The translations under genes and the position numbers were made by a program. 37,835 nt of DNA from Candidatus Omnitrophota bacterium (GTDB lineage: Bacteria > Omnitrophota > Gorgyraeia > Duberdicusellales > 4484-171): contig JAMWCT010000001.1 in assembly GCA_023819525.1 (NCBI GenBank), positions 1 to 37,835 on the forward strand, written 5' to 3'. Below the pieces are notes generated by a model. It did not search any database and was not told the DNA's origin. It was given only the letters and a program-made list of their open reading frames with translations. Below are positions 25,367-37,835 of the stretch, one piece after another. Position 1 is the stretch's first letter, and each line of letters begins with the position of its first letter.

Positions 25367-25396
25367 TTGACAATAAAATGCAAACTAAAGTATAAT
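25367..25396 (+). promoter_or_regulatory. Consensus sigma70 promoter TTGACA-N18-TATAAT heading the 13-gene accessory operon
   Basis: TTGACA at 25367-25372 and TATAAT at 25391-25396, both perfect hexamers. The first ATG (25406) starts 10 nt after the -10 and has no Shine-Dalgarno sequence. Confidence 0.55.
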
Positions 25397-25405
25397 GATT
25401 TCTGT

Positions 25406-26254
25406 ATGTATGAATTATACTGGAATTTAAAAGAGAAACCTTTCGAAAATACGCCTGATCCAAAATATATTTACTATTCTTCTTTGCATAAAGAAGCAAT
25501 CTCAAGACTTCTATATGCGGTGAGAGAAAGAAAAGGTGCTGCACTTTTAACAGGAGAGTATGGCAGTGGCAAGACCTTATTAAGTAGAATTCTTTTAGAA
25601 GAATTAGCCCAAGAACATATTTATCAGTATGTAGTTATTTTTAATCCAAGATTAGATGCGACAGATTTGTTGCGGACAATACTTATACAGTTATCAGAGC
25701 AAAACCAGTCAACTTCTAAAGCAGAAATACTTTCATCTTTATACAATATATTTTATTCTATTTATCGCTCAAATAGGCACACGGTAATAGTTATAGACGA
25801 AGCTCAAGCAATTATAAATGAGGAAGTTTTTGAAGAGTTAAGATTATTATTAAATTTTCAATTAAATAATGCATTTTTGCTTACTTTAGTTATTTTAGGC
25901 CAACCTGAATTAAAAGTAAAAATTGCAAAATTACCACAATTACTTCAGCGACTTTCTATACGCTATCATTTAAATGCCTTAAATGAAGTAGAGACAAAAG
26001 AGTACATTTTACATAGACTTTCAGTTGCAGGCGCAACAATACAGCCTTTCACCGAAGATGCCTTTAAAGATATCTATTTTTTTTCAGCCGGTATTCCAAG
26101 ACAAATTAATACTATATGCGATTTAGCATTACTTGTTGGTTATGGAGAGAATTTAAAGGAAATTACTAGAGATGTAATTTTAAAAGTGGCTGAAGATATA
26201 AAACCAACACCATCTTTATTAGAAAAACAGCAGGGTTTATATTTTGGAAAATAA
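25406..26254 (+). CDS. ExeA/GspA-like AAA ATPase (COG3267 type)
   Basis: MYELYWNLKEKPFENTPDPKYIYYSSLHKEAISRLLYAV matches the family N-terminus. Walker A GEYGSGKT, Walker B VIVIDEAQ, then LVILGQPEL and GIPRQINTICD. The start is set at ATG 25406. The track's TTG at 25367 is the -35 hexamer. Confidence 0.8.
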   Translation: MYELYWNLKEKPFENTPDPKYIYYSSLHKEAISRLLYAVRERKGAALLTGEYGSGKTLLSRILLEELAQEHIYQYVVIFNPRLDATDLLRTILIQLSEQNQSTSKAEILSSLYNIFYSIYRSNRHTVIVIDEAQAIINEEVFEELRLLLNFQLNNAFLLTLVILGQPELKVKIAKLPQLLQRLSIRYHLNALNEVETKEYILHRLSVAGATIQPFTEDAFKDIYFFSAGIPRQINTICDLALLVGYGENLKEITRDVILKVAEDIKPTPSLLEKQQGLYFGK

Positions 26255-26258
26255 ATAT

Positions 26259-27266
26259 ATGATTAAAATTTCCGATATTTTTGATAAACATAAAAAAAAT
26301 AAAATTGAAAACAAAGAAAAAGCAAAAGACTTAATTTCTAAAACAACCGATGCACCTGTCTCTTATTCTGAAGGCGATCAAGAAAGTGTTTCTTTGCAAG
26401 TAATTAATATAACTACCAACCTGATAGATTTAGCGCTTAAAATTTACAAACCGAATGCCCTTAATTTAGATTTAATAAATAAATTAAAAAACTGTATCAA
26501 TATGCTTGTAGAATTTAAAAATTTGGAAGATGATTTTTTAAAAGTATTTTTTAAAGACTATCCAGAAGACTCTACCTATTTAGTCTATCATATAGCAAAT
26601 ACTTCTATTTTAAGTTTAGAAGTCGCTAAAACTTTAAAGTATGATAACGAAAGGCTTTTTTATTTAGGTTTAGGAGCTTTTTTGCATAAAATAGGTTTAA
26701 CTACAATTTTAGACATAACCTTAGAAGATTCTCAATTAGAGCAAGCAAAAAGTGAAAAAATAAAGACACATCCTTTGGTGGGCAGTAAAATTTTAAAAGA
26801 ATTTGAAAAAGAATTTGATTCAACTACAATTAAAATTGTTGAGCAGAGTTTTGAAAGGATAGATAAAAGCGGTTATCCTTTAGGGATAGATGAACCAATA
26901 CCAGAAGCTCAAATAGTAAATATTGTCCAAGTATATGAGAGTTTGGTTCATAAAAGAAATTATCGGGAAAAATTTAATCCACTTAAAGCAATGAAAATAA
27001 TTATAGAAGATAAAGGTTTTGTGAATAATAAAATAAAAAAGGCATTAATTGAAAGGGTTGGTTTTTATCCACCAAATACACTCGTACTTCTTAATACAAA
27101 AGAAGAAGCAATTGTAATAGCAACAAATTTTAAAAATCCTTTAAGGCCGATAGTAAAAAAAATATCTACTCAAAATAAGATCCAAATTACAGAGCCAAAG
27201 ATTATTAATTTAGCCAAAGATACCCATTTTTATATTGAGAAAATTTTAACTCAAAATGGCCAATAA
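26259..27266 (+). CDS. Degenerate HD-GYP-like domain protein
   Basis: GAFLHKIG (HD replaced by HK), KTHPLVGSKIL, SFERIDKSGYPLGI (HHE replaced by SFE, GYP retained), IVNIVQVYESLVHKRNY (the DxxD position reads QxxE). The start is set at ATG 26259. The track start at 26244 is TTG. Confidence 0.6.
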   Translation: MIKISDIFDKHKKNKIENKEKAKDLISKTTDAPVSYSEGDQESVSLQVINITTNLIDLALKIYKPNALNLDLINKLKNCINMLVEFKNLEDDFLKVFFKDYPEDSTYLVYHIANTSILSLEVAKTLKYDNERLFYLGLGAFLHKIGLTTILDITLEDSQLEQAKSEKIKTHPLVGSKILKEFEKEFDSTTIKIVEQSFERIDKSGYPLGIDEPIPEAQIVNIVQVYESLVHKRNYREKFNPLKAMKIIIEDKGFVNNKIKKALIERVGFYPPNTLVLLNTKEEAIVIATNFKNPLRPIVKKISTQNKIQITEPKIINLAKDTHFYIEKILTQNGQ

Positions 27267-28962
27267 AAAGGTTTTTTTTGTTTCAATAAGTATTCTTTTT
27301 TTAGTTTTTGTTATCTCATATTATTTAACCACACTTATCTATAAAGAAAAATTTGATTCAGATTTTTTGCAATATTCTAAATATTTTGAAAAGACTACCA
27401 GAGAAAACGACGCGCTTAATTTAGCGAAAAAAATATTTGAAAGTGCACAATTTAAAATAAATGTTTTACAGGATAAAATATATCAATTAGAGAAAAAAAA
27501 TAAAAGTCTAATTCAAGAGATAAAAGATAAACAAAAAGAAATAGAAAAAATCAATCAAAATAAATCATTAGCGGAGAAAGAACTTAATCAGCTCTTAAAA
27601 GATAAAGTTTTAATAGATCAAGAGATTAAGAAACTAAAAGAAAAATTAACCAATTATGAAATAGATAATAGAAGATTGGCTGAAGAGAATTTAGTTCTAA
27701 AAGAGGAAATTGAAAAATTTCAAAATGAAAATTCAGCTTTAAATAAAACTGTAAATTTGCTAAAAGAAAATATAAATAATAAAGAGGCTGTAGAAAAAAA
27801 ACTTAAAGAAAGAGTTGTTTACTTAAACAATCTTTTGTTAGAAAAAGACAATTTAATAACTACAAAGAATGCTCAAATAAATAATCTTAATACAGTAAAA
27901 GTAAATTACGAAGAAAAAATAAATGAATTAATAGAAGAAAACTCTAATTTAAAAAAATCACTTTTGTCTTTACAGGAAGAATTATCTACAAAAAAATTAG
28001 AATTAACCGAATTATTAAAGCAAAAATATATGCAAAAACAGCAAAATTTAAAAATGCAGGAAACGATTAATTCTATATCAGCCACACTAAGCGAAAAAGA
28101 TCAAATGTTGCAAGCTACAGAAAGCGAAAATGAAGCTTTAAAAAGCACGGTTAAAAAACAAATTAAAGAATTTCAGGATTTGCAAAAACTTTATAATAAA
28201 GTTTCAACTGAGTATAATATATTAAATGATAAGTTAAAAAATTTAGAAGAAGAAAAAAACCAACTTCAAAGTCAATATTTAAACTATAAACTTGAAACAC
28301 AAAAACAACTAGAGGAAACTACCGCCAAATTGCTATCTACACAAAGAGAATTAAACAATTTAAAAAATGAATTAGAGAACCAAAAGCAACTTAATCTAAC
28401 AACAAATAATCAATTGTTACAGTTTACAGAAGAGATAAAAGAAAAAGAGGCAAGAATAGGAGAGCTTCAAAATCAAAAAACTTCCTTAGAAGAAGAAAAA
28501 TACACGCTTAATGATAAAATGAAAGACATACAAAACAAATATAATCAACTTTTGGTAAACCACAATAGTCTACAAGAAAAATTTTCTAATTTGCAAAAAA
28601 ATTTTGAAGAAATTAAAGTCGAAAAAGAAGCGCAGATAAATAAATTAATTGAGGAAGCCAAATTACTTAAGCAAGAAGTTTCTTTAAAAGAAAAAGCAGT
28701 TTCCAATTTAAAGGAACAATTTGAGCATTTAAACCAAAAATATATAGTAGTTTCCAAAGAAAATTTAGATTTAAACTCGCAAAATTATCAATTAAGGCAA
28801 CAGATAGATGAGTTAAATGTAAAAATAGATAATATTTTAAAAGATAAGGAGAAAACCATTAAAATAAAACAACAATTAAGTCCAAAAGTTACCAAAAAAA
28901 CTAAAGTAGAAGAGTTAAAAAATAAAGTTGAGGAAAAATTAAGAGAAATTATAGCTTTTTAG
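27256..28962 (+). CDS. Membrane-anchored long coiled-coil protein
   Basis: One N-terminal TM helix (VFFVSISILFLVFVISYYLTTLIY), then about 520 aa of E/K/L/N/Q-rich heptad-like sequence. No enzymatic motif is present. Confidence 0.6.
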   Translation: MANKKVFFVSISILFLVFVISYYLTTLIYKEKFDSDFLQYSKYFEKTTRENDALNLAKKIFESAQFKINVLQDKIYQLEKKNKSLIQEIKDKQKEIEKINQNKSLAEKELNQLLKDKVLIDQEIKKLKEKLTNYEIDNRRLAEENLVLKEEIEKFQNENSALNKTVNLLKENINNKEAVEKKLKERVVYLNNLLLEKDNLITTKNAQINNLNTVKVNYEEKINELIEENSNLKKSLLSLQEELSTKKLELTELLKQKYMQKQQNLKMQETINSISATLSEKDQMLQATESENEALKSTVKKQIKEFQDLQKLYNKVSTEYNILNDKLKNLEEEKNQLQSQYLNYKLETQKQLEETTAKLLSTQRELNNLKNELENQKQLNLTTNNQLLQFTEEIKEKEARIGELQNQKTSLEEEKYTLNDKMKDIQNKYNQLLVNHNSLQEKFSNLQKNFEEIKVEKEAQINKLIEEAKLLKQEVSLKEKAVSNLKEQFEHLNQKYIVVSKENLDLNSQNYQLRQQIDELNVKIDNILKDKEKTIKIKQQLSPKVTKKTKVEELKNKVEEKLREIIAF

Positions 28963-28965
28963 ATT

Positions 28966-29793
28966 ATGTTTTGGATAAATTTTTTGTTATTTTTTTTCTT
29001 TTTTCTACATCCTGCCTTCTCAGAAAACCTTATAGAAAAAATAAAAATAACATACAAAAAAGCAAATTATTATTATCAGCGTGGCGAATACCAAAAAGCT
29101 GAGAAAGAATATCTGGAAACTTTAAGGCTTATCGATGAATATAAGATTAACCTAAAAGATAAAAATCAGGCAAGCAGTAAAAAAGAAAAAACAACCTTAT
29201 ATACTATTGGCGAAGGCGATATTTTATATATTTCTGTCTGGCAAAATGAAGATTTAAATCAAGAGATAATTGTAAGACCAGATGGATATGCATCTTTTCC
29301 TTTAATTGGAGATTTAAAGATATCTGGTTTAACAATACCTCAATTAGACAAACTACTTACCGAAAAATTGAAAGAATATATACGTAGACCAGAAGTTTCA
29401 ATAACTTTGAGAAAAATTGGAGGAAGCAGGGTTGTTTTATTAGGTGAAGTTACTTGGCCAGGGGTATACCATGTTGATGGAACAAAGACGGTTTTAGAAT
29501 TAATCGGAATGGCCGGGGATTTTACTCTTGACGCGGTAAAATCAAGTGTGATTTTAATAAGAGGTGGATTTTTAAATCCAGAAGTTAGACGACTAAATAT
29601 AGCAAATGTATTAAAAGGAGACCTAACTGATAATGTTGTGCTTCAATCAGAAGATATAGTCTTTGTTCCAAAAACCTTTATTTCAAACCTAAACTATGTT
29701 ATAAATCAGATCCTTGAGCCGCTTTCAGGTGGTAGTATGGTTTATTCAAAATGGCATTCCTTTGACCGTCTGCCAAGAGAAAAAAAGCCTTGA
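28966..29793 (+). CDS. Polysaccharide-export (Wza-like Poly_export + SLBB) periplasmic/outer-membrane protein
   Basis: Signal peptide MFWINFLLFFFFFLHPAFS. YTIGEGDILYISVWQNEDLNQEIIVRPDGYASFPLIGDLKISGLTIPQLDKLL (Poly_export), then VVLLGEVTWPGVYHVDGTKTVLELIGMAGDFT (SLBB). There is no lipobox Cys. Confidence 0.78.
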   Translation: MFWINFLLFFFFFLHPAFSENLIEKIKITYKKANYYYQRGEYQKAEKEYLETLRLIDEYKINLKDKNQASSKKEKTTLYTIGEGDILYISVWQNEDLNQEIIVRPDGYASFPLIGDLKISGLTIPQLDKLLTEKLKEYIRRPEVSITLRKIGGSRVVLLGEVTWPGVYHVDGTKTVLELIGMAGDFTLDAVKSSVILIRGGFLNPEVRRLNIANVLKGDLTDNVVLQSEDIVFVPKTFISNLNYVINQILEPLSGGSMVYSKWHSFDRLPREKKP

Positions 29794-29800
29794 AAATAAA

Positions 29801-31636
29801 ATGTTTAAGGTTCTTCTATGTATCCCGCCAGATTACGAATATAGTTACCCACCTCTTGGGACAGCTTCGCTTTGCGGTTTTTTGAAAGCAAAAAAAATAG
29901 ATACCCTACAAATGGATTTAAACATACTTTATAGAAAATTTCTTTTAAATAAAATTGAAGCAGATTTTTTAGATACCCATCAAAAAAAGAAAATTTTAAA
30001 GCAAATTCTCTTTAATTTCTTTCATAAAAAATTAAAAGATAGATATTATTCTGATTTTTTACCAAGAAATACTGATAGAATTTTTCCATTTTTACCTTAT
30101 GAAAACAATTCAAATAGTTCCTTTTATTTTACCGAAAGACTACTTTCTTCTGAATATCTTTTTTATTATCTTTCTGATATCAAAGAAAATACTTTTTATC
30201 AATTTTACCAACAAGAAAAAATTTTAGATTTTTTGGATAAAGAAAAAATTAATTTATGTGGAATATCTGTTATCTCCCCTTCACAGGTAATTGCATCTTT
30301 AACCTTAGGTTTTTTAATTAAAAAGAACTTACCGCATATACATATAACTTTTGGTGGACAATGGGTGACTTTATATAGGAAGGCTTTACTTAAAAGAAAA
30401 AAATTTTTTTCCTGTTTTGATAGTTTAGTTGTCTTTGAAGGAGAAACCCCTCTTTATAGACTTTGCTGTATGTTAAAGCAAAAAAGAAAGTATTATATTA
30501 AAAATTTAATATTTAAAGAGACAAAAGAAGATTTTACCTATAACCATACTGAAGAAGACCTAAATAAATTGCCAACTCCAGATTTTGATGGCCTGCCTTT
30601 GAAAGAATACGACGCAAATGACTTTAAAACTATAACATTAACTTATGAAACCTCAAGAGGTTGTTATTGGGCAAGATGTGCATATTGCGTAGATTTACCT
30701 TTACCTAAACCAACTTATAGAAAAAAAGCAGCATATTTAGTTTCAAATGATATAAAAAAATTAAAGAAAAAGTATAAAGCAACAAATCTTCTTTTTAGCG
30801 ATCCAGCGCTTTCGCCGCGTCAAATGCTTGAGGTTTCAAAAGAACTACTAAAAAACCGAATAAAGATAAAATGGTGGTGTATGGCTAGACCAGATAGTGG
30901 TTTTAAGTATGAAATTTTTAAAGCTGCTTTTAGGGCAGGACTTACACATATAAATTTTGGCTTTGAAACAGCAAATGATAGATTGTATAATCTTCTTTCT
31001 AAAGGAACAAAATTAGAAATAGTTAAAAAAGTAATTAGAGATTGCAAAAAAGCAGGTATTTTAGTAGACCTGCAAACAATGTTAGGACTTCCAAAAGAAG
31101 GCTTTCAAGAAGGTTTAAATACAATAGAGTTTTTGGTAAAAAATAAAAAATACATCTTTAATGTTAGTTTCAATCTTTATTATCTTACCCCTCAAAATCA
31201 TATATTTTGTCAACCAGAAAAATATCAAATAGAATATAAGCAAAAATACCCATTTAGTTTTTTTATACCTTTTAGAAATAGAGAAGGCCTGACAAGAAAA
31301 GAAGCTTATCTACTTTGGTTACTTTATGAAAAACTTATCAATAAAGAAAAAACTTACAATTTAGGTCCTTTAGAATCTATTAAAATACCTAATTATATAG
31401 AAGAAAAAATAATTCGTTTTAAGTTGCTTGAAGAATCAATTAAATTGTATTGTCTTTTTGATACAAAATCTAAAAAATTTATAGTTATGGATAGAATAAG
31501 GAAGAATATGTTGAAGCTACTGGAGAATAAAAATTTTCACCATTTAGCAAAAGAGCAAATTGATTTTTTAAATTATCTTCTAAAAGAAAAATTTTTAAAA
31601 AAAACTCCAAAATATGGCCGAGAAACTGCTCTTTAA
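29801..31636 (+). CDS. B12-binding-domain radical SAM protein
   Basis: N-terminal KVLLCIPPDYEYSYPPLGTASLCGFL and ISVISPSQV (B12-binding Rossmann pattern). Radical SAM cluster region TSRGCYWARCAYC, followed by NFGFETANDR. The start is set at ATG 29801, 7 nt after the upstream stop. Confidence 0.75.
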   Translation: MFKVLLCIPPDYEYSYPPLGTASLCGFLKAKKIDTLQMDLNILYRKFLLNKIEADFLDTHQKKKILKQILFNFFHKKLKDRYYSDFLPRNTDRIFPFLPYENNSNSSFYFTERLLSSEYLFYYLSDIKENTFYQFYQQEKILDFLDKEKINLCGISVISPSQVIASLTLGFLIKKNLPHIHITFGGQWVTLYRKALLKRKKFFSCFDSLVVFEGETPLYRLCCMLKQKRKYYIKNLIFKETKEDFTYNHTEEDLNKLPTPDFDGLPLKEYDANDFKTITLTYETSRGCYWARCAYCVDLPLPKPTYRKKAAYLVSNDIKKLKKKYKATNLLFSDPALSPRQMLEVSKELLKNRIKIKWWCMARPDSGFKYEIFKAAFRAGLTHINFGFETANDRLYNLLSKGTKLEIVKKVIRDCKKAGILVDLQTMLGLPKEGFQEGLNTIEFLVKNKKYIFNVSFNLYYLTPQNHIFCQPEKYQIEYKQKYPFSFFIPFRNREGLTRKEAYLLWLLYEKLINKEKTYNLGPLESIKIPNYIEEKIIRFKLLEESIKLYCLFDTKSKKFIVMDRIRKNMLKLLENKNFHHLAKEQIDFLNYLLKEKFLKKTPKYGRETAL

Positions 31637-31988
31637 ACTTACAGGCTCAAGCATGTATCCATTAATAAGGGAGGGAAGTTATATTTTAGTTAAGCCAACA
31701 AAAAAAATTTTTTTTGGTGAACTTGTTGTTTTCAAAGAGGGCGATAAGATTATCTGTCACCGTTTAATTTTTAAAAAAAATCATTTTTTTTATTCTAAGT
31801 CTGATACTGAACTTTTTAGAATAGAAAAATTAAATATAGAAAATATTTTAGGAAAAGTGGTAATGGTTATAGATTTTAAAAAACGTATATTTTTAAATAA
31901 TTTTTTTTGGTATCTCAAAAGTTTATTATTTTTTTTCTTTACCCCAATTTTAGTAATATTTCTTAATTTTTTTAAAAAAAATGAATAG
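31614..31988 (+). CDS. S26B (Sec11/SipW, Ser-His type) signal-peptidase-like protein with a C-terminal TM helix
   Basis: GSSMYPLI (box B Ser13), GELVVF (box C), ICHRLI (box D with His49, not Lys), SKSDTE (weak box E). Hydrophobic tail FFWYLKSLLFFFFTPILVIFLNFF. There is no N-terminal TM or signal sequence. Confidence 0.6.
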   Translation: MAEKLLFKLTGSSMYPLIREGSYILVKPTKKIFFGELVVFKEGDKIICHRLIFKKNHFFYSKSDTELFRIEKLNIENILGKVVMVIDFKKRIFLNNFFWYLKSLLFFFFTPILVIFLNFFKKNE

Positions 31989-33411
31989 CATTTATATAGT
32001 TGAAGAGCACCATCAAGTTTTAAGAATATGGAGAAAGAAAAAAATTAAAAATTTAGATGTTTTGCACATAGATGCACATCTTGACTGGCAAGTTTTTCTG
32101 GCAAAACCTATAGAACAGATTTTAAGAGATTCAAAAACAATAAAACAACTAAAAGAAGAATTAGAAAACACACTTCTATACTTTCAATACCAAAAGAATT
32201 TAGGAGAACAAACAAATATAGGAAATTACCTATATCCAGCACAAAAAGAAAATATAATAAAAAATATCTGGTGGGTGGTTCCTTCAAAAAATTTATATAA
32301 AGATATAAGCTTAATAAAAAAATTTTTCTTTTATTTAAAAAAAGATTCTCGATTAGCAGAAAAACCAATTTTTAAATTAAAAAATAAAATTTTGAAAGTA
32401 AATTTTGCAGAGCAGGTTTTTTACATTTGCACACTTTATGACCTACCTAAATTTAAAGATGAGGTTATATTAGATATAGATATAGATTTTTTTGTAATTA
32501 ATAATTTAAAAAAAACAGACAATGTAACTGATATCGCAAAAAGAAAACTTTGGATACAGCCAAAAGAAGTAGCAACCCTCTTAAAAGAAAAAGTAAAAAA
32601 CTCTAAAATCATTACTATTTCTTATTCTACTAACGATGGTTTTACTCCAATAGAGTTTAGGTATATAGCTAGTGAACTGGCATTTTATTTTTCACCTCAA
32701 AAATTCAAAAATAGATTTTTAAAAAGTTTTAAAGCGCATATAAATTTTTTCGCATTTAAAGAAACAAAAAAAAGTTTTTACTATTGGCAAGCAGTCAAAT
32801 TAGATAAAGCTTATAGATTTAAAGATAATAACTTTGGTTTTCTTTATTTGAAAATAAAAAAATTTAATTTAGCTAAAAAAGAATTTGAAAATATTTTATC
32901 TGTAGACAAAACTAACCCAGCGGCTCTTTTAGGTTTAGGATTTATATATTTTCATAAGAAAAAATTAAAAGAAGCCAAAAAAAATCTTTATAAAGCTTAT
33001 TATTTTTCAAAAATTCAAAGATTTTTTTCTATCTACAGAAAAGCAATATTTCTTTTGGCTAAATTAGAATTTAGGTTAAAAAATTTTAGAGTATCTAAAA
33101 AATTTTTTTTAAAATTTATCAAAAGCGAATCAACTGAACCAGAGGCTTATTTTTATCTTGCAAGACTGCTCATTTTAGAAAAAAAATTTCTAAAAGCAAC
33201 CATTTACTTAAAAGATGCTGTAAAGTTAGGCTTGGAGGTTGATGGTTTATTTTATTTAGCAAAAATTTTAACCTTCCTAAAGAAAAACAAATATGATATA
33301 ATAAATTTTATAAATCAAAGAATAATCTTTATAAAAAACAAAAAATTAAAAAAGATAAAATATGTAAGAGAAATTTTAAAAAAATTTAAATATGCAGGAG
33401 ATAATCTATAA
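31981..33411 (+). CDS. Arginase/deacetylase-fold (UPF0489-like) domain fused to TPR repeats
   Basis: The N-terminus has IVEEHHQVL, LHIDAHLDW (D31-x-H33-x-D35) and ILDIDIDFF (D165/D167/D169), which mimic the ureohydrolase metal-ligand motifs. The C-terminal half has TPR-like repeats (AALLGLGFIYFHKKKLKEAKKNLYKAY, EAYFYLARLLILEKKFLKATIYLKDAV). Confidence 0.55.
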   Translation: MNSIYIVEEHHQVLRIWRKKKIKNLDVLHIDAHLDWQVFLAKPIEQILRDSKTIKQLKEELENTLLYFQYQKNLGEQTNIGNYLYPAQKENIIKNIWWVVPSKNLYKDISLIKKFFFYLKKDSRLAEKPIFKLKNKILKVNFAEQVFYICTLYDLPKFKDEVILDIDIDFFVINNLKKTDNVTDIAKRKLWIQPKEVATLLKEKVKNSKIITISYSTNDGFTPIEFRYIASELAFYFSPQKFKNRFLKSFKAHINFFAFKETKKSFYYWQAVKLDKAYRFKDNNFGFLYLKIKKFNLAKKEFENILSVDKTNPAALLGLGFIYFHKKKLKEAKKNLYKAYYFSKIQRFFSIYRKAIFLLAKLEFRLKNFRVSKKFFLKFIKSESTEPEAYFYLARLLILEKKFLKATIYLKDAVKLGLEVDGLFYLAKILTFLKKNKYDIINFINQRIIFIKNKKLKKIKYVREILKKFKYAGDNL

Positions 33412-33685
33412 AAAAAATCCTAATTTTGTAGCAAGAGAGATTGTCAATGAATTAGTCTTGGTTCCTATATATAAGGATACAAAAGAACTAAACTGTATTT
33501 ATACTTTAAATAAACCTGCTAAAGTTTTTTGGCAACTTTTAGATGGAAAAAGAACGATTTCGCAAATAAAAAAAGAACTCTTAAAAAAATTTTCTTCTAT
33601 AGATTTAGATAATAATTTTGAAAAGTTAATAAAAGAACTTCTAGAAATAAAAGCAATAAAAAAATCATATGAAACCAAAATTTAA
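33392..33685 (+). CDS. PqqD-family peptide chaperone (RiPP recognition element)
   Basis: 97 aa. FVAREIVNELVLVP...IYTLNKPAKVFWQLLDGKRTISQIKKELLKKF...LIKELLEIKAIK fits the PqqD beta-strand plus three-helix pattern. Confidence 0.8.
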   Translation: MQEIIYKKNPNFVAREIVNELVLVPIYKDTKELNCIYTLNKPAKVFWQLLDGKRTISQIKKELLKKFSSIDLDNNFEKLIKELLEIKAIKKSYETKI

Positions 33686-33866
33686 TCCAAAAATTACCAA
33701 AATCAAATTAAATCCAGAACAAGCAGTTTTAATCTGCAGTTGTTATCGCTCAGGAAGAGTTATAGCTACTAGTGGTACTCGTTCAAGCACTCGGGTTTGT
33801 GGAAGAGGAACTGTAAGAGGATATCCTAGATATGCAACCACAACAACCAGCAGAAGCTGGAGTTAA
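33669..33866 (+). CDS. Candidate RiPP precursor peptide (65 aa)
   Basis: MKPKFNPKITKIKLNPEQAVLICSCYRSGRVIATSGTRSSTRVCGRGTVRGYPRYATTTTSRSWS. The leader is Lys-rich. The core has 8 Arg, 3 Cys and many Ser/Thr/Gly, and ends in Ser. Its start overlaps the PqqD stop by 17 nt, and an rSAM/SPASM gene begins 7 nt after its stop. Core DNA is about 44% GC versus about 24% for the leader (hand count). Confidence 0.65.
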   Translation: MKPKFNPKITKIKLNPEQAVLICSCYRSGRVIATSGTRSSTRVCGRGTVRGYPRYATTTTSRSWS

Positions 33867-33873
33867 TTTTTAA

Positions 33874-34917
33874 ATGCCAGATGAGTTTTATAATTTTTTT
33901 AAAAAATTAGACAATAATCTTTTTATAAACCAAGCCCACCTTGAGATTACATATCGTTGTAACCTAGATTGCGTTTATTGTTATTGTTTAAAAAATTCTA
34001 ATGAAATTAGTACTAATCAATTTAAAAAAATAATTGCTCAGTTAAAGGATTTAAATATTTTTTTCCTTACATTTAGTGGTGGAGAACCTTTTTTAAGAGA
34101 GGATTTTTTAGAACTATATTTATATGCAAAGCAAAAAGGTTTTTTGATAAGTGTATTAACTAATGGAACGCTTTTTAATAAAAAAAATATAGGTGTTTTA
34201 GCAAAAGCACCTCCATATGTAATTGAGATAACTTTAAATGCAATAAGCCAAAAGATTTATCAAAAAATCACACAGACTAATTTTAAAGTAAAAAAAGTTT
34301 TAGAAAATATCAAATTTTTAAAGGAAAAAAATATACCAGTTAAAGTTAAAACTACTGTTTTGAATTTAAATAAAGATGAGTTAATAAAGATTAAAAACTA
34401 TGTGTTTTCTGTTTTAGGAAAACCAAAGAAAGGCTATCTATTTGGTTACGATTTTTATATTTATCCTAAAATTGATGGAGAGAAAACACCAATAAAATAT
34501 AGATTAAATTTTACTCAAATAGAGAATATTTTAAAAAAAGATAGGGATTTATGGCGAGATTGGAAAAAAGAACTGAAAAGAAATTTGCCAAAAATTAATT
34601 TAAAAAATAAATTTTTCTGCACTTTCCCACTACAAAATTTTGTTATCTCGCCTACAGGAAAATTAAAATTTTGTATATTTTCTACTAAATTCAGTCAAGA
34701 TATAAAAGAAAAACCTATTAATTTAACTCACAGAGAACTTCTAAAAAATTTAGAAAATTATTTTCACGAATATAAAAATTCTTGTTATTTTAATTGCAAA
34801 TTTAATAAAACCTGTTTTTGGTGTCCTATAAGGCAAGAACTTGAAGGTAAAAGCAATTTAGATTATTTTTGCGCTTGGGCAAAATATTTTTATAAAGAAA
34901 CAAAAAGATGCAGATAA
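33874..34917 (+). CDS. Radical SAM/SPASM peptide maturase, paralog 1
   Basis: CNLDCVYC (CX3CX2C), FSGGEPFLR, C-terminal CTFPLQNFVISPTGKLKFC (CX12GX4C), CYFNCKFNKTCFWC and a final YFC. Confidence 0.82.
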   Translation: MPDEFYNFFKKLDNNLFINQAHLEITYRCNLDCVYCYCLKNSNEISTNQFKKIIAQLKDLNIFFLTFSGGEPFLREDFLELYLYAKQKGFLISVLTNGTLFNKKNIGVLAKAPPYVIEITLNAISQKIYQKITQTNFKVKKVLENIKFLKEKNIPVKVKTTVLNLNKDELIKIKNYVFSVLGKPKKGYLFGYDFYIYPKIDGEKTPIKYRLNFTQIENILKKDRDLWRDWKKELKRNLPKINLKNKFFCTFPLQNFVISPTGKLKFCIFSTKFSQDIKEKPINLTHRELLKNLENYFHEYKNSCYFNCKFNKTCFWCPIRQELEGKSNLDYFCAWAKYFYKETKRCR

Positions 34918-35969
34918 AAGCTCAAAGTGATTTTTTTTATAAATTGCATAAAGAGGCAATAAAAAGAAGAATTCCTTTGAGAGTTATGTTTGAGATCACA
35001 TATAGATGTAATTTTAGCTGTCAATATTGCTATTTGCCAAAAAGCTATCGAAACATTAAAGAATTAAATAAAAAAGAGGTTTTTTCTATATTAAAAGATT
35101 TAGCAAAAGAAGGGTGTTTTTATTTAGGTTTTAGTGGGGGTGAACCTTTTTTAAGAAATGATTTTTTAGAGATATTAGAATTTTCTAAAAGGTTAGGATT
35201 TTTTATAACTATAAATACAAATGCTTCTTTAATTAACAAAAAAGTTGCAAAAAAAATCATTGATTTGGGCATAAATAAGATTGATATAAATATTATTAGT
35301 CTAAAAGAAGCTATTTTTAGAAAAGTTACAAAAAGTTTACGTTTTAATAAAGTTTTAGATGCTATTTATTTTTTAAAAAGTAAAATTCCTTTGGGATTTA
35401 AAACTTGTATAACAAAATATAATTTTAACCAAATAGAAAATATAAAAAAATTTGCTAAAAGTATGGGGGTTTTTTTAAGATTAGACGATAGACTAAGCCT
35501 TTGTTTAAATGGAGATAACCGTCCTTATAGATTTAGTATATATAAGATTGAAGACCTAGATTTAGATTTATATTTAGAGAAAAAAGTTTCAGTTAAAAAA
35601 TTTAAGGCTATAGATATATTTAGTTGTAAAGCAGGATTTTTACAATGCGCCATTAATCCGGCTGGTAAAATTAAAATATGTGTTGGCATAGATGCCCCTT
35701 TATATAGTTGTAAAAAAAATTTTAAAAGAGCCTGGCAAAGATTGGAAGATTTTTTAAATTTAATTAAAATAGATGATAGATTTAAATGTTTTAGATGTAA
35801 ATTAAAAAATTTTTGTGACTGGTGTCCCGCAAAGTCTTTTCTTGAAAATAAGGACTTTATAAGTTGCGATAAGGAAAGTAGGTTTTTTGCATATCAAGCT
35901 TACAAAAAATATTATGAGCAAACAAATATATTTAAAAATAGCAGATACAGTAGTTTTGTTGGAAAGTAA
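34908..35969 (+). CDS. Radical SAM/SPASM peptide maturase, paralog 2
   Basis: CNFSCQYC, FSGGEPFLR, CKAGFLQCAINPAGKIKIC, CFRCKLKNFCDWC and a final SC. Confidence 0.82.
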   Translation: MQIKAQSDFFYKLHKEAIKRRIPLRVMFEITYRCNFSCQYCYLPKSYRNIKELNKKEVFSILKDLAKEGCFYLGFSGGEPFLRNDFLEILEFSKRLGFFITINTNASLINKKVAKKIIDLGINKIDINIISLKEAIFRKVTKSLRFNKVLDAIYFLKSKIPLGFKTCITKYNFNQIENIKKFAKSMGVFLRLDDRLSLCLNGDNRPYRFSIYKIEDLDLDLYLEKKVSVKKFKAIDIFSCKAGFLQCAINPAGKIKICVGIDAPLYSCKKNFKRAWQRLEDFLNLIKIDDRFKCFRCKLKNFCDWCPAKSFLENKDFISCDKESRFFAYQAYKKYYEQTNIFKNSRYSSFVGK

Positions 35970-36822
35970 ATTTGAATATGCAAAGAACGACAAAGGCATA
36001 GCACCAGAGCGTTTCAGTAATTTTTTTTATAAAAAAGCAATACCGGATATAAAGATAGAGATACAAATAGTAGAAAAGTTCCCCCAAGACTTTTACAGGC
36101 CGGATGGTTTTTCAACAATTCACCCACAGGATAAGTCTTTATGTTGGCAATGGGAAGAAAAAAAAGATTATTTTATTTTTAGAAGTTTAGTAGAAGGTAA
36201 ATTTCAATTAGCACAAATTGAAAAAAATTTCAAAAATGTGAGATTTTTTGTCCTGCCACAAAAAAATAAATTTATATGGTTTGCCACAGATGTAATTTAT
36301 GATTTTTTACAAATACTTTTTTTAGTTTATTTTGCAAAAACAAAAAAAGGGATATTTTTACATGCAAGTGGTATAAATTTATATGGCAGTGGTTTTGTCT
36401 TTGCAGGAAAATCAGGCGTAGGAAAAACTACTTTAGCCAAACTTTGGAATAAATATTCTGATGCAGAAATTTTAAACGATGATAGGATAATTGTGCGAAA
36501 ACAAAATAAGCAATTTTTTATATATGGTTGCCCTTGGCATGGAGCTTTTAGCGATTATTTAAAATCAAGGATGCATCCAGCGCCTTTAAAAAAAGTATTT
36601 TTTATCTATCCGGCTAAAAAAAATATTCTAAAAAAGTTAAATTTTTTTGATGCATTTAAACTTCTATATCCGGCTATTTTTCCTGTCTTTTGGGATAGGC
36701 TTTCGTTAAATAATATATTTTTATTTTTAAACGATTTGTTAGAAAATATAGTTTGTTTCTCTTTAGGATTTAGAAAGACAAAGGATATAATTAAATTTTT
36801 TAAAGAAAAGTGTTTAAATTAG
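35914..36822 (+). CDS. HPr-kinase-like P-loop kinase
   Basis: IFLHASGINLYGSGFVFAGKSGVGKTTLAKLW...ILNDDRIIV matches the HprK C-terminal catalytic core (lHg..v...G.GvLi.G.SG.GKS..A..L......l..DD). The start is set at ATG 35914 (MSKQIYLKIAD). The track start at 35887 is possible. Confidence 0.72.
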   Translation: MSKQIYLKIADTVVLLESKFEYAKNDKGIAPERFSNFFYKKAIPDIKIEIQIVEKFPQDFYRPDGFSTIHPQDKSLCWQWEEKKDYFIFRSLVEGKFQLAQIEKNFKNVRFFVLPQKNKFIWFATDVIYDFLQILFLVYFAKTKKGIFLHASGINLYGSGFVFAGKSGVGKTTLAKLWNKYSDAEILNDDRIIVRKQNKQFFIYGCPWHGAFSDYLKSRMHPAPLKKVFFIYPAKKNILKKLNFFDAFKLLYPAIFPVFWDRLSLNNIFLFLNDLLENIVCFSLGFRKTKDIIKFFKEKCLN

Positions 36823-37835
36823 CTTATAAAAATTTTAGTCTTGCAACTCATATAAAAAGCATAAGTCTAAAAAAAATAATTTTTGCTCAATTTGATTTAA
36901 CTTATAAGTGTGATTATTCTTGTAATTACTGTTATACAATTTGTTTCAACAAAGAAAAATATTTGAAAAAAGAATTAGATACCAACAAAATAAAAGCTAT
37001 TTTAGATAAACTTTATAATGAAGGTATCCTATGGCTTACTTTTAGTGGAGGAGATCCATTAACAAGAAGTGATTTTTTAGAAATTTATAAGTATTCAAAG
37101 GAAAAAGGTTTTCTTATAAGTATCCTTACAAATGGTTATAGGATAGACTTAAAACTAATCGATTTTTTCAAAAAGTATAGACCCTTTTTGATTGAGATTA
37201 CTTTAAATTCTATAAATCCCAAAACTTTTAAAAAAATTATCCAAAAAAATTTAAATTCAGAAAAGGTGCTTTCTGTAATAAAAAAATTAAAAAAAGAAGG
37301 GCTACCACTAAAAATAAAGACCCAAGTTATAAAGAATAATTTAGATGAAATTCCAAAAATAAAAAAATTTCTTCAAAAACTAAATTTAAAATTTTACCCA
37401 TCTTCTATAATATATCCAAGACTAAATAAAAATAAATTTCCTTGCTCGTTAAGGATAGATAAAGAGAAGTTTTTCAAAAAAAATTTGGGTTGTAATCAAA
37501 ATTTTAAGAAACATTTTAAATTTTTTCCCTGCACAGTTTTGAATACAGAGGGAATTCAGATTGATCCTTATGGAAATGTTTTTCTATGCGAACTTATAAG
37601 AAAACCTAAAGTAAATATTTTAAGATGTGACTTAAAAACTCTATACAATAAACTTATAGATTTTTTAAAAGATTTAGAAAACAGGTATAAAGATAAATGC
37701 CTTTGTGCAAGATGTAGATATATATATAGTTGTATGTGGTGTCCAGGGAAGGCATATTTAGAGACAAATAGTTTTATAAAACCAATAGATTATTACTGCC
37801 TACAAAAAGAAATTTTAAATTATGGAAAAAGTATC
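36810..37835 (+). CDS. Radical SAM/SPASM peptide maturase, paralog 3 (GTG start; 3' end cut by the window edge; absent from the supplied ORF track)
   Basis: Hand translation gives (V/M)FKLAYKNFSLATHIKSISLKKIIFAQFDLTYKCDYSCNYCY...LTFSGGDPLTRSDFLEIYKYSKEKGFLISILTNG...CTVLNTEGIQIDPYGNVFLC...CLCARCRYIYSCMWC...YYC. The frame is open from the stop at 36801-36803 to nt 37835 (342 codons). The only plausible start is GTG at 36810. It is most similar to paralog 1. Confidence 0.8.
   Translation, partial: MFKLAYKNFSLATHIKSISLKKIIFAQFDLTYKCDYSCNYCYTICFNKEKYLKKELDTNKIKAILDKLYNEGILWLTFSGGDPLTRSDFLEIYKYSKEKGFLISILTNGYRIDLKLIDFFKKYRPFLIEITLNSINPKTFKKIIQKNLNSEKVLSVIKKLKKEGLPLKIKTQVIKNNLDEIPKIKKFLQKLNLKFYPSSIIYPRLNKNKFPCSLRIDKEKFFKKNLGCNQNFKKHFKFFPCTVLNTEGIQIDPYGNVFLCELIRKPKVNILRCDLKTLYNKLIDFLKDLENRYKDKCLCARCRYIYSCMWCPGKAYLETNSFIKPIDYYCLQKEILNYGKSI

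Follow-up and report, generated by a model that had tools for sequence, protein, structure and literature searches.

A predicted RiPP gene cluster of Omnitrophota that combines a phosphopeptide-type module with radical SAM, arginase and methylase genes

We describe a gene cluster in a 37,835-nucleotide stretch of DNA from a Candidatus Omnitrophota bacterium (GenBank assembly GCA_023819525.1, contig JAMWCT010000001.1; this whole stretch is called the window below). The cluster comprises nine genes on the plus strand at positions 29801-37835, in which neighbouring genes overlap or are separated by no more than 7 bases. It encodes a small precursor peptide together with a B12-type radical SAM enzyme, a signal peptidase-like protease, an arginase-TPR protein, a PqqD-family protein, three radical SAM/SPASM enzymes and an HprK-like kinase. 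We consider, with moderate confidence, that these genes direct the synthesis of a peptide synthesised on ribosomes and modified post-translationally (RiPP), for which a module of the type known from linear polyphosphorylated peptides (LPPs) and paeninodin would be combined with radical SAM, arginase and methylase chemistry on a hypervariable core. The cluster is a phylum-wide system of the Omnitrophota and no one-off. All genes that the original prediction had listed here are present on the plus strand, and every enzyme assignment was upheld by domain matches, homolog profiles and conserved motifs.

The original prediction had also recognised the enzyme combination from no described class. This claim stands in part. 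The full combination and the precursor family found no match in the curated libraries or in the full-text literature that we searched, and in these sources the radical SAM/SPASM trio, the arginase-TPR protein, the B12-type radical SAM enzyme and the precursor family form part of no described system and are not reported together with an LPP-type module. About half of the gene set is nevertheless a module described in 2026. The peptidase, the recognition protein and the kinase, together with a nucleotidyltransferase and an exporter encoded in the orthologous locus, correspond to the LPP core set (PMC13381572), the kinase and the nucleotidyltransferase form the tailoring pair of paeninodin and pseudomycoidin (PMC6993621), and there is a weak, partial echo of the uncharacterised SynChlorMet cassette.

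The precursor gene and its family

The precursor gene (positions 33669-33866) encodes 65 amino acids, of which approximately residues 1-21 constitute the leader (MKPKFNPKITKIKLNPEQAVL) and the remainder the predicted core (ICSCYRSGRVIATSGTRSSTRVCGRGTVRGYPRYATTTTSRSWS). No Pfam or NCBIfam model matched this protein. The core has the composition attributed to it in the original prediction, with 8 Arg, 3 Cys, a TTTT run and a C-terminal Ser. A word-indexed search recovered a single homolog of the open reading frame (ORF), 85% identical and located in a Candidatus Omnitrophica metagenome-assembled genome (MAG) on a contig that is syntenic with the window (locus L001). In a codon-level comparison of the two loci, the precursor genes differed by 22.5 synonymous and 13.5 non-synonymous substitutions, and their dN/dS ratio of 0.115 was the lowest among eleven gene pairs. 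An exhaustive phmmer search against 1.84 billion representatives (50% identity clustering) yielded 539 precursor relatives at E <= 1e-3. The low dN/dS ratio and these relatives establish the small ORF as a real gene, far beyond chance. The reading as a RiPP-like cassette with a genuine precursor, as originally proposed, is well supported by these results, by the division into leader and core and by the conserved gene order.

We also considered whether a GC-rich patch could represent a non-coding RNA. This candidate was ruled out, since Rfam and tRNA scans of the window gave zero matches and the patch shows a coding-type substitution pattern. A 5-bp GC-rich hairpin (CCAGCAGAAGCTGG, positions 33847-33860) spans the last precursor codons, with AT-rich sequence after it. 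This might be a chance feature or a weak attenuator controlling how much precursor is made relative to the enzymes.

A pattern scan using one genome per species identified 70 loci with a precursor, mostly in Omnitrophota, with a few bins labelled Elusimicrobia, Planctomycetales, Verrucomicrobiota, Saganbacteria, WOR-3 or Chloroflexota. With a hidden Markov model of the family, we found 137 precursor genes across 75 loci. The leader is nearly invariant (K-P-K-F-x-P-x-I-T-R-[IV]-K-L-N-P-E-Q-A-V-L), and its L, E, Q, A and V are 100% conserved in the 69 members of type A, the type present in the window. In type A, the leader is followed by xCxC[YFW]xxG, and in type B by SCC[DN]xxx[RK]. The type-B leaders carry a WxxPx[ILM] motif in 21 of 54 members, with W occupying that position in 82%. 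Beyond the CxC[YFW]xxG motif or its type-B equivalent, conservation drops sharply to nil. The resulting hypervariable cores are 26-82 residues long and contain 3-4 Cys, and the two Cys of the leader-proximal CxC/CC motif are invariant. The C-terminal residue is Ser or Thr in 122 of the 126 full-length members (97%; 111 Ser and 11 Thr).

Several members of the family show unusual arrangements. Tandem arrays contain up to seven type-B precursor genes with the SCC motif and cores of 26-43 amino acids. The largest array has seven genes within 2.5 kb (L055:1-2578), and further arrays were found at L054, L057, L058, L061 and L071. These loci belong to two MAGs, STF1_137 and STB_176, the former alone accounting for at least 12 loci, and many of the arrays are distant from any gene for a modifying enzyme. 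In one marine Omnitrophota MAG, a PqqD-family domain and a precursor are encoded by one ORF (L041:8868-9623, L045:7151-7990 and L048:11514-12236), in which a charged linker rich in Arg, Glu and Lys joins the two parts; at L041 there is no Met between them, and the sequence suggests a genuine fusion. Finally, divergent members occur in a Chloroflexota bin and in 'Bacillati bacterium ANGP1' (L066:4783-5037 and L069:1703-1927). There a KLNPEQAVL leader precedes a core that starts with G[AT]C, and ScmC-like and radical SAM genes adjoin. These members may form a bridge to the classical SynChlorMet cassette.

Functional assignment of the cluster enzymes

The discrete PqqD-family protein (97 amino acids, positions 33392-33685) is a RiPP recognition element (RRE) whose gene overlaps the precursor gene by 17 bases. 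It matches the Pfam PqqD family at 5.4e-7. In a comparison of the RRE profile with PDB, the best match was the lasso RRE TbiB1 (4e-5), and the next two were entries from 2026, a "PqqD family protein" and a "Lasso peptide biosynthesis PqqD family chaperone". Single-sequence PDB searches with the PqqD protein and with the peptidase gave nothing useful, and profiles built from homologs were required for both.

The putative leader peptidase (124 amino acids, positions 31614-31988) is an archaeal/ER-type signal peptidase I-like protease of the S24/S26 type, which matches Pfam Peptidase_S24 (4.3e-10) and NCBIfam sigpep_I_arch (6.8e-9) and has a C-terminal hydrophobic tail. A profile of 17 homologs matches the ER-type proteins SEC11C/SEC11A at 8e-8, with the SM-P, HR and GD motifs aligned. 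The candidate catalytic residues are well conserved, with Ser13 (in GSSMYP) kept in 17 of 19 homologs, His49-Arg50 in all 19 and Asp64 in 18.

The HprK-like P-loop protein (302 amino acids, positions 35914-36822) is a putative peptide Ser kinase that is precomputed in Pfam as PF27840 (ScmC). Its NCBIfam matches are HprK_rel_B (3.1e-7) and ScmC (1.3e-4), both far below the cut-off. Among 28 kinase homologs, 27 are nearest to HprK_rel_B and 25 match ScmC (TIGR04249; best E-value 4e-9), all again far below the NCBIfam cut-off. His159, the GxSGxGK[ST] P-loop and Asp198-Asp199-Arg200 align with the corresponding residues of Lactobacillus casei HprK, and these motifs are unchanged in 41 homologs except for some Gly/Ser residues of the P-loop and for position 199, where 37 homologs have Asp and 4 have Glu. 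More than 180 homologs have 42-50% identity, and all those with a source name come from Omnitrophota.

Two further components of the module are absent from the window, which ends within the gene for the third radical SAM/SPASM enzyme. Directly downstream of that gene, L001 encodes an MsbA/HlyB-type ABC exporter and a nucleotidyltransferase of the NTP_transf_5 family (PF14907, 1e-39).

The three radical SAM/SPASM enzymes are paralogous, with 34-40% identity (34% between enzymes 1 and 2), and each has a CX3CX2C motif and a 7-Cys SPASM-type motif. Enzyme 1 (347 amino acids, positions 33874-34917; Pfam Radical_SAM 85.5 bits) contains CNLDCVYC and the SPASM elements C-x13-G-x4-C and CX3CX5CX2C, and its best PDB sequence match is the thioether synthase SkfB (2.2e-11). 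Enzyme 2 (353 amino acids, positions 34908-35969; 85.5 bits) contains CNFSCQYC and the SPASM Cys motifs. Enzyme 3 (86 bits) contains CDYSCNYC and the SPASM motifs; its gene starts with GTG at position 36810, covers 342 codons up to position 37835 and has no stop codon before the window ends, so that the cluster runs past it, and the product is 81% identical to its 333-aa ortholog in L001. Because the cluster motif begins at residue 29-36, none of the three enzymes has room for a fused N-terminal RRE. They share the radical SAM domain, the auxiliary SPASM Cys, Cys-containing cores and apparent RRE dependence with the maturases of sacti- and ranthipeptides (SkfB, AlbA, StsB and CteB). They differ from these in their length of about 350 amino acids without a fused N-terminal RRE and in the presence of three paralogs per cluster. 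Thioether crosslinking by the trio is our leading guess, given the SkfB-like enzymes and cores with 3-4 Cys, of which the two at the leader-core junction never vary; the sequences do not discriminate between thioether, C-C and other radical chemistry.

These enzymes bear directly on a first alternative explanation, an ordinary sacti- or ranthipeptide bacteriocin, in which Cys thioethers would define the class, the kinase, arginase and methylase would perform minor tailoring, and the product would be an antimicrobial unrelated to the capsule locus. Such a peptide would account for the three core Cys, the three radical SAM/SPASM enzymes, the discrete RRE and the exporter, as well as for SkfB being the best solved relative and for the StsB and AlbA families appearing among the NCBIfam matches. 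Bacteriocins typically have hypervariable cores and precursor genes in multi-copy arrays, and a cationic core rich in Arg or ornithine would suit an antimicrobial. However, all sacti- and ranthipeptide models in NCBIfam scored far below their cut-offs (61.6 bits versus 850 for AlbA, and 55.6 versus 625 for StsB). Moreover, the kinase gene is as conserved as the radical SAM genes (40 versus 41-46 loci), the NTP_transf_5 gene follows the exporter gene in 21 loci, and the cluster is located between wza-like and wzc-like genes. The C-terminal Ser/Thr exceeds every core position in conservation, the invariant CxC/CC Cys excepted, and therefore the phosphorylation module appears to be class-defining as well. 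On balance, we regard a simple bacteriocin as an unlikely, if tangible, possibility.

The B12-type radical SAM enzyme (611 amino acids, positions 29801-31636) is a putative peptide C-methyltransferase. It exceeds the cut-off of Pfam Radical_SAM (44 bits), and its score for the B12-binding domain was 28.3 bits versus a cut-off of 32.1. The best NCBIfam matches are all B12-binding radical SAM families, all below their cut-offs, including the RiPP C-methyltransferase family TIGR03975 (1.7e-27) and the PhpK family (1.2e-24). The cluster does not belong to the proteusins, as the TIGR03975 score is 96 bits versus a cut-off of 282 and the precursor lacks a match to the nitrile-hydratase-type leader (NHLP). 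In this enzyme, a CX4CX2C motif (CYWARCAYC, residues 288-296) replaces the canonical CX3CX2C, and the variant is kept in 7 orthologs.

The arginase-TPR protein (positions 31981-33411) consists of an arginase domain (UPF0489/pfam12640, residues 1 to ~250) and a TPR region (~260-476). A homolog search with this protein was swamped by low-complexity candidates, and 5 true homologs were obtained. The window's arginase domain belongs to the peptide arginase family PF12640 (29.3 bits versus a cut-off of 27), which is matched by all 22 homologs of the domain. When a 22-sequence profile of the N-terminal domain was compared with PDB, the sole significant match was OspR (8BRP), a peptide arginase (3.7e-9), and the alignment covers the EEH, HxDxHxD and DIDxD motifs, which are named as metal-binding motifs of peptide arginases in PMC12703449. 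The corresponding segments VEEHHQVL, HIDAHLD and LDIDIDFF are conserved in the homologs, and the candidate metal site (H10, H29, D31, H33, D35, D165, D167 and D169) is kept in 23-24 of 24. The TPR region was recognised by both fold-search and sequence matches. A single-sequence PDB search with the complete protein returned TPR proteins alone, as did a fold search with its full-length model (AlphaFold models with pLDDT 77-80).

The cores encoded beside an arginase gene always contain Arg, with a median of 4 (8.0% of residues) versus 1 (3.0%) for cores without such a neighbour. With its metal ligands intact, its match to OspR and the Arg-enriched cores, the arginase looks active and supplied with a substrate. 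The original suggestion that the core offers a substrate for every enzyme thus gained comparative support for Arg and for the C-terminal Ser/Thr. The peptide arginases OspR, FlmR and OhkR (PMC12703449 and PMC10028609) share with the window protein the motifs DxHxD, EEH(N/H) and DIDxD and an adjoining Arg-rich precursor. The C-terminal TPR fusion of ~220 amino acids is not mentioned in the consulted portions of these articles, and the precursor falls outside the NHLP, N11P, SCIFF, SCCRRSCN, DD(I/V)LF and MGxRRSSE types given there.

Relationship to described systems and to the exopolysaccharide locus

The LPPs of Bacillota (LppA/K/B/S/D/N) were described by Popov et al. (Nat Commun 2026, PMC13381572). 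Their core gene set encodes an archaeal-type signal peptidase, a discrete RRE, a kinase of the HprK-like type, an NTP transferase that is uncharacterised and an exporter resembling MsbA. The clusters sit within capsular polysaccharide loci and are reported to be restricted to Bacillota, and the precursors are conserved at the N-terminus and hypervariable at the C-terminus. Core Ser3 is polyphosphorylated by LppK, leader cleavage by LppS requires LppB, and the final product and function of LPPs are given as unknown (PMC13381572). The same study found that lasso and LPP RREs recognise a W-x-x-P-x-[I/L/M] leader element and that LPP and paeninodin clusters alike are associated with capsule genes and co-induced with an exopolysaccharide (EPS) gene.

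The Omnitrophota clusters have in common with LPP clusters all five accessory gene types, the NTP transferase and the exporter being taken from L001. In the window, a signal peptidase I with Ser/His/Asp, which would be the LppS counterpart, is present together with a discrete RRE encoded two genes downstream, and the HprK-like kinase gene also lies in the cluster. In both systems, a cluster encodes one to several precursors, conserved N-terminally and hypervariable C-terminally, and is set in a capsule or EPS locus; an aromatic-x-x-Pro leader motif is shared by the type-B relatives. In contrast to the Omnitrophota clusters, LPP clusters contain no radical SAM/SPASM, arginase or B12-type radical SAM genes. 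The LPP leader consensus YxxPxVLxHQxIxFETxxS is not present here, where KLNPEQAVL is followed by CxC/CC and there is no FETxxS; the aromatic-Pro element alone recalls the LPP consensus. The LPP phosphosite is core Ser3, whereas the conserved Ser of the present family is C-terminal, and the host phylum is Omnitrophota rather than Bacillota. The cluster is therefore not an LPP cluster by leader consensus, nor by the definition of a linear product without further class-defining enzymes, given that the radical SAM trio is conserved. The likeness to LPPs was drawn by description, and sequence homology was instead compared with a paeninodin-type lasso cluster.

The homology control was locus L077 of Paenibacillus cellulosilyticus, which tblastn had retrieved with NTP_transf_5 of L001 as the query (2e-9). 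This locus lies beside nucleotide-sugar genes and proved to be a paeninodin-type lasso cluster, whose genes run NTP_transf_5, Asn synthase, HprK-like kinase, PqqD, transglutaminase-like protease and ABC exporter. The Omnitrophota kinase profile aligned with the kinase of this locus with an hhalign probability of 93.9% (E 1.6e-7), and the RRE profile aligned with its B1 protein with a probability of 94% (E 1.5e-7). The equivalence of PsmN and LppN with PF14907 is presumed on the basis of the control locus. Another match to NTP_transf_5, on a Bacillus plasmid (H4), was set aside for its unrelated context.

The HprK-like kinases LppK, PadeK and PsmK polyphosphorylate a Ser (PMC13381572, PMC6993621), and in pseudomycoidin the C-terminal Ser is phosphorylated by PsmK, after which this phosphate receives one or two hexoses from PsmN (Zyubko et al. 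2019, PMC6993621). With paeninodin and pseudomycoidin, the Omnitrophota system shares the HprK-like kinase, the PF14907 nucleotidyltransferase, the PqqD-type B1 RRE, the ABC exporter and a substrate that ends in Ser, which in those peptides is (poly)phosphorylated and then hexosylated. It differs in having neither an Asn-synthase-like cyclase nor a transglutaminase-like B2 protease, in its putative leader protease, which is a signal peptidase, and in the presence of radical SAM enzymes. Neither the cyclase nor the B2 domain was found in the window or in L001, although both were readily detected in the control. The original prediction had also stated that there is no lasso cyclase, YcaO, LanM/B or nitrile-hydratase-type leader, and Pfam and NCBIfam scans indeed found none of these in the window or in the orthologous locus.

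A second alternative is that the genes form a cassette of the SynChlorMet type (ScmC, ScmD and ScmE/F), which is uncharacterised and might serve to mature a cofactor or protein and not to make a peptide for secretion. Such cassettes (TIGR04248-04250 for ScmD, ScmC and ScmE), reportedly completed by ScmF in Haft's TIGRFAMs descriptions, likewise combine an HprK-like protein of the ScmC family, a PqqD-like protein and paralogous radical SAM/SPASM enzymes. To our knowledge, no precursor has been identified for them in these descriptions. ScmC, ScmD and ScmE are indeed among the NCBIfam matches of the window proteins, and the PF27840 assignment of the kinase-like protein and the TIGR04249 matches of 25 of its 28 homologs point in the same direction. 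The scores nevertheless lie far below the equivalog cut-offs (21.4 bits versus 125 for ScmC, 23.2 versus 100 for ScmD and 71.9 versus 400 for ScmE). The Omnitrophota clusters also differ from the cassette in their three radical SAM enzymes, precursor family, peptidase, exporter, NTP transferase and arginase. The precursor of a cofactor should be neither hypervariable nor arrayed in up to seven copies, and the exporter and leader peptidase genes favour secretion. We consider a maturation cassette of this kind very improbable.

The composition of the related loci is variable. The recurrent order among 76 loci is PqqD, precursor, radical SAM 1, radical SAM 2, ScmC, radical SAM 3, ABC exporter and NTP_transf_5. 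The gene for radical SAM/SPASM enzyme 1 is present in 46 of these loci, that for enzyme 2 in 41 and the HprK-like kinase gene in 40, and NTP_transf_5 follows the exporter in 21. PqqD, ScmC, the ABC exporter and NTP_transf_5 occur together in 18 loci, in 7 of which the peptidase is present as well. Other genes are accessory, namely those for the peptidase (19 loci), the arginase-TPR protein (27), the B12-type radical SAM enzyme (8), a U32-family protein (11) and a glycosyltransferase-9 (GT9) protein (6). The full gene set of the window recurs in L001, L008, L012 and L028.

In the 11 related loci that have it (L003:13790-14794, L005:6496-7539 and 9 others), the U32-family gene (Peptidase_U32) lies within the cluster; the window has no such gene. 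Several U32 proteins are Fe-S hydroxylases and not peptidases, and this gene may provide a further tailoring step. A heptosyltransferase-like GT9 gene is inserted between the genes for the HprK-like protein and radical SAM enzyme 3 at L004:10932-12074 and in L026 and L067, which hints that the peptide is glycosylated.

Upstream of the cluster, the window contains an EPS locus on the same strand, consisting of genes for a pepcterm_ATPase-like AAA_22 protein (25367-26254), an HD-domain protein (26244-27266), a coiled-coil protein (27256-28962) and a Wza-like Poly_export protein (28966-29793). The last of these ends 7 bases before the start of the B12-type radical SAM gene, and the same string precedes the cluster in L001 and L004. 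Among the products, TIGR03015 (pepcterm_ATPase) was matched with 238 bits and TIGR03027 (pepcterm_export) with 111 bits. In L001, the region after radical SAM enzyme 3 continues from the exporter and the PF14907 nucleotidyltransferase to a Wzc-like kinase, a Wzy_C protein and a flippase. Poly_export/Wzz genes occur in 17 of 39 ScmC-containing loci despite truncated contigs. In some other loci they follow NTP_transf_5, so that Poly_export is found on either side of the cluster.

Some features of this region deserve a separate record. The EPS genes (25367-29793, and L001:16959-20198) resemble the XrtA/PEP-CTERM set, including a chain-length determinant/Tyr kinase, and neither an exosortase nor a PEP-CTERM protein was seen in the stretches examined. 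The 568-aa product of the coiled-coil gene is a near-total coiled coil rich in Lys, Glu, Asn, Gln and Leu, and it is kept in the window, L001 and L004. After a 415-base gap, a sequence at 25367-25396 matches the sigma-70 type perfectly (TTGACA, 18 nt, TATAAT) and heads the same-strand string from the pepcterm_ATPase-like gene to the RiPP cluster; the promoter and terminator scan of the window was at chance level overall. The remaining genes of the window are housekeeping genes, including those for DnaE, GuaA/B, Tgt, TrmD, FolD and GlnRS, and therefore the locus is chromosomal.

The EPS linkage gives rise to a third alternative, in which the peptide would be a quorum-sensing-like signal or regulator of EPS production, or a structural component glycosylated by the EPS machinery, with no antimicrobial role. 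It draws on the position of the cluster, which in many genomes is enclosed by a locus of the Wza/Wzc/Wzy type with Poly_export to one side or the other, on the GT9 gene within the cluster in three loci, and on the capsule association and EPS co-induction of LPP and paeninodin clusters (PMC13381572). Signals, however, are usually conserved within a lineage, whereas the cores here are hypervariable and multi-copy; Pfam and NCBIfam scans found no receptor or regulator gene in the cluster, and the linkage may be mere inherited synteny. We assign a low probability to such a signalling or structural role.

Predicted pathway and implications

Under our preferred reading, a RiPP pathway built on an LPP/paeninodin-type module, the discrete PqqD RRE would bind the conserved leader (KFxPxITRIKLNPEQAVL) and the modifying enzymes would act on the core. 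The three radical SAM/SPASM enzymes, having no RRE of their own, would most likely crosslink the conserved CxC and the third Cys in a thioether-type reaction, the arginase-TPR protein would convert some of the eight Arg into ornithine, and the B12-type radical SAM enzyme would C-methylate unactivated carbons. The HprK-like kinase is predicted to phosphorylate a Ser, with the C-terminal Ser favoured by analogy with paeninodin and pseudomycoidin. Phosphorylation at the C-terminus appears to be the most economical prediction, since a C-terminal Ser is near-universal in the family. NTP_transf_5, which is encoded beyond the window in the ortholog, would then add a sugar to the phosphate. The membrane-anchored archaeal-type signal peptidase would remove the leader with the assistance of the RRE, at a cleavage site that we predict close to NPEQA|VL or AVL|x, and the MsbA-like ABC exporter would secrete the product. 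The whole set would be co-transcribed within the Wza/Wzc-type exopolysaccharide locus, and this setting makes a role at the cell surface or in connection with the capsule probable for the product.

Several observations weigh against this reading. The top NCBIfam matches of the radical SAM trio are haem, PQQ and MoaA enzymes, all below the cut-off, and the function of these enzymes cannot be read from their sequences. The HprK-like protein is far below the cut-off of every curated kinase family, and in PDB its profile is dominated by P-loop ABC matches, with HprK at E = 0.1. As the target of LppK is core Ser3, the identity of the target Ser is uncertain by analogy. In the fold search with the N-terminal domain of the arginase-TPR protein, ureohydrolases had the top probability with a best E of 0.04 and a TM of about 0.35; no match reached a significant E-value, and OspR was not among the matches. 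The Mann-Whitney p value for Arg enrichment beside the arginase gene (6.6e-6) is uncorrected for phylogeny. The peptidase, arginase and B12-type radical SAM genes are missing from many related loci, which makes them accessory. The ABC exporter and NTP_transf_5 are attributed to the window's cluster from an ortholog with about 80% protein identity, and the EPS linkage could be gene order inherited within one phylum instead of a sign of functional coupling.

A more far-reaching variant of the pathway, which we consider improbable, is a conjugate rather than a free bacteriocin. A crosslinked, ornithine-bearing peptide would have its C-terminal Ser-phosphate extended by NTP_transf_5 and the adjoining glycosyltransferases into or onto the exopolysaccharide and would be exported via ABC/Wzc/Wza. 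If this were true, the nano-sized Omnitrophota would gain a hypervariable peptide-tagged capsule for interaction with hosts or prey and for evasion of phages or predators. The capsule-linked phosphopeptide systems of Bacillota (LPPs and paeninodins) and those of Omnitrophota would then represent one ancient cross-phylum class of peptide-glycan conjugates.

The value of the system lies in the size and phylum-wide spread of the family, in its uncharted radical SAM chemistry and in the cross-phylum link between phosphopeptides and the capsule. The precursor family is very large and uncurated: it comprises at least 539 clusters at 50% identity and is covered by neither Pfam nor NCBIfam. Its host phylum is almost entirely uncultured, and none of its natural products has been characterised; the papers found that mention biosynthetic gene clusters of Omnitrophota offer antiSMASH-type counts alone. 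The three RRE-dependent radical SAM/SPASM paralogs, the arginase-TPR fusion and the CX4CX2C B12-type radical SAM enzyme, all of which appear to tolerate hypervariable cores, are of possible use in peptide engineering. The cluster further suggests that the LPP/paeninodin module, reported as restricted to Bacillota, is ancient or mobile and can be combined with radical SAM crosslinking. The recurrence of the capsule-locus link across phyla bears on the function of LPPs and phosphorylated lasso peptides.

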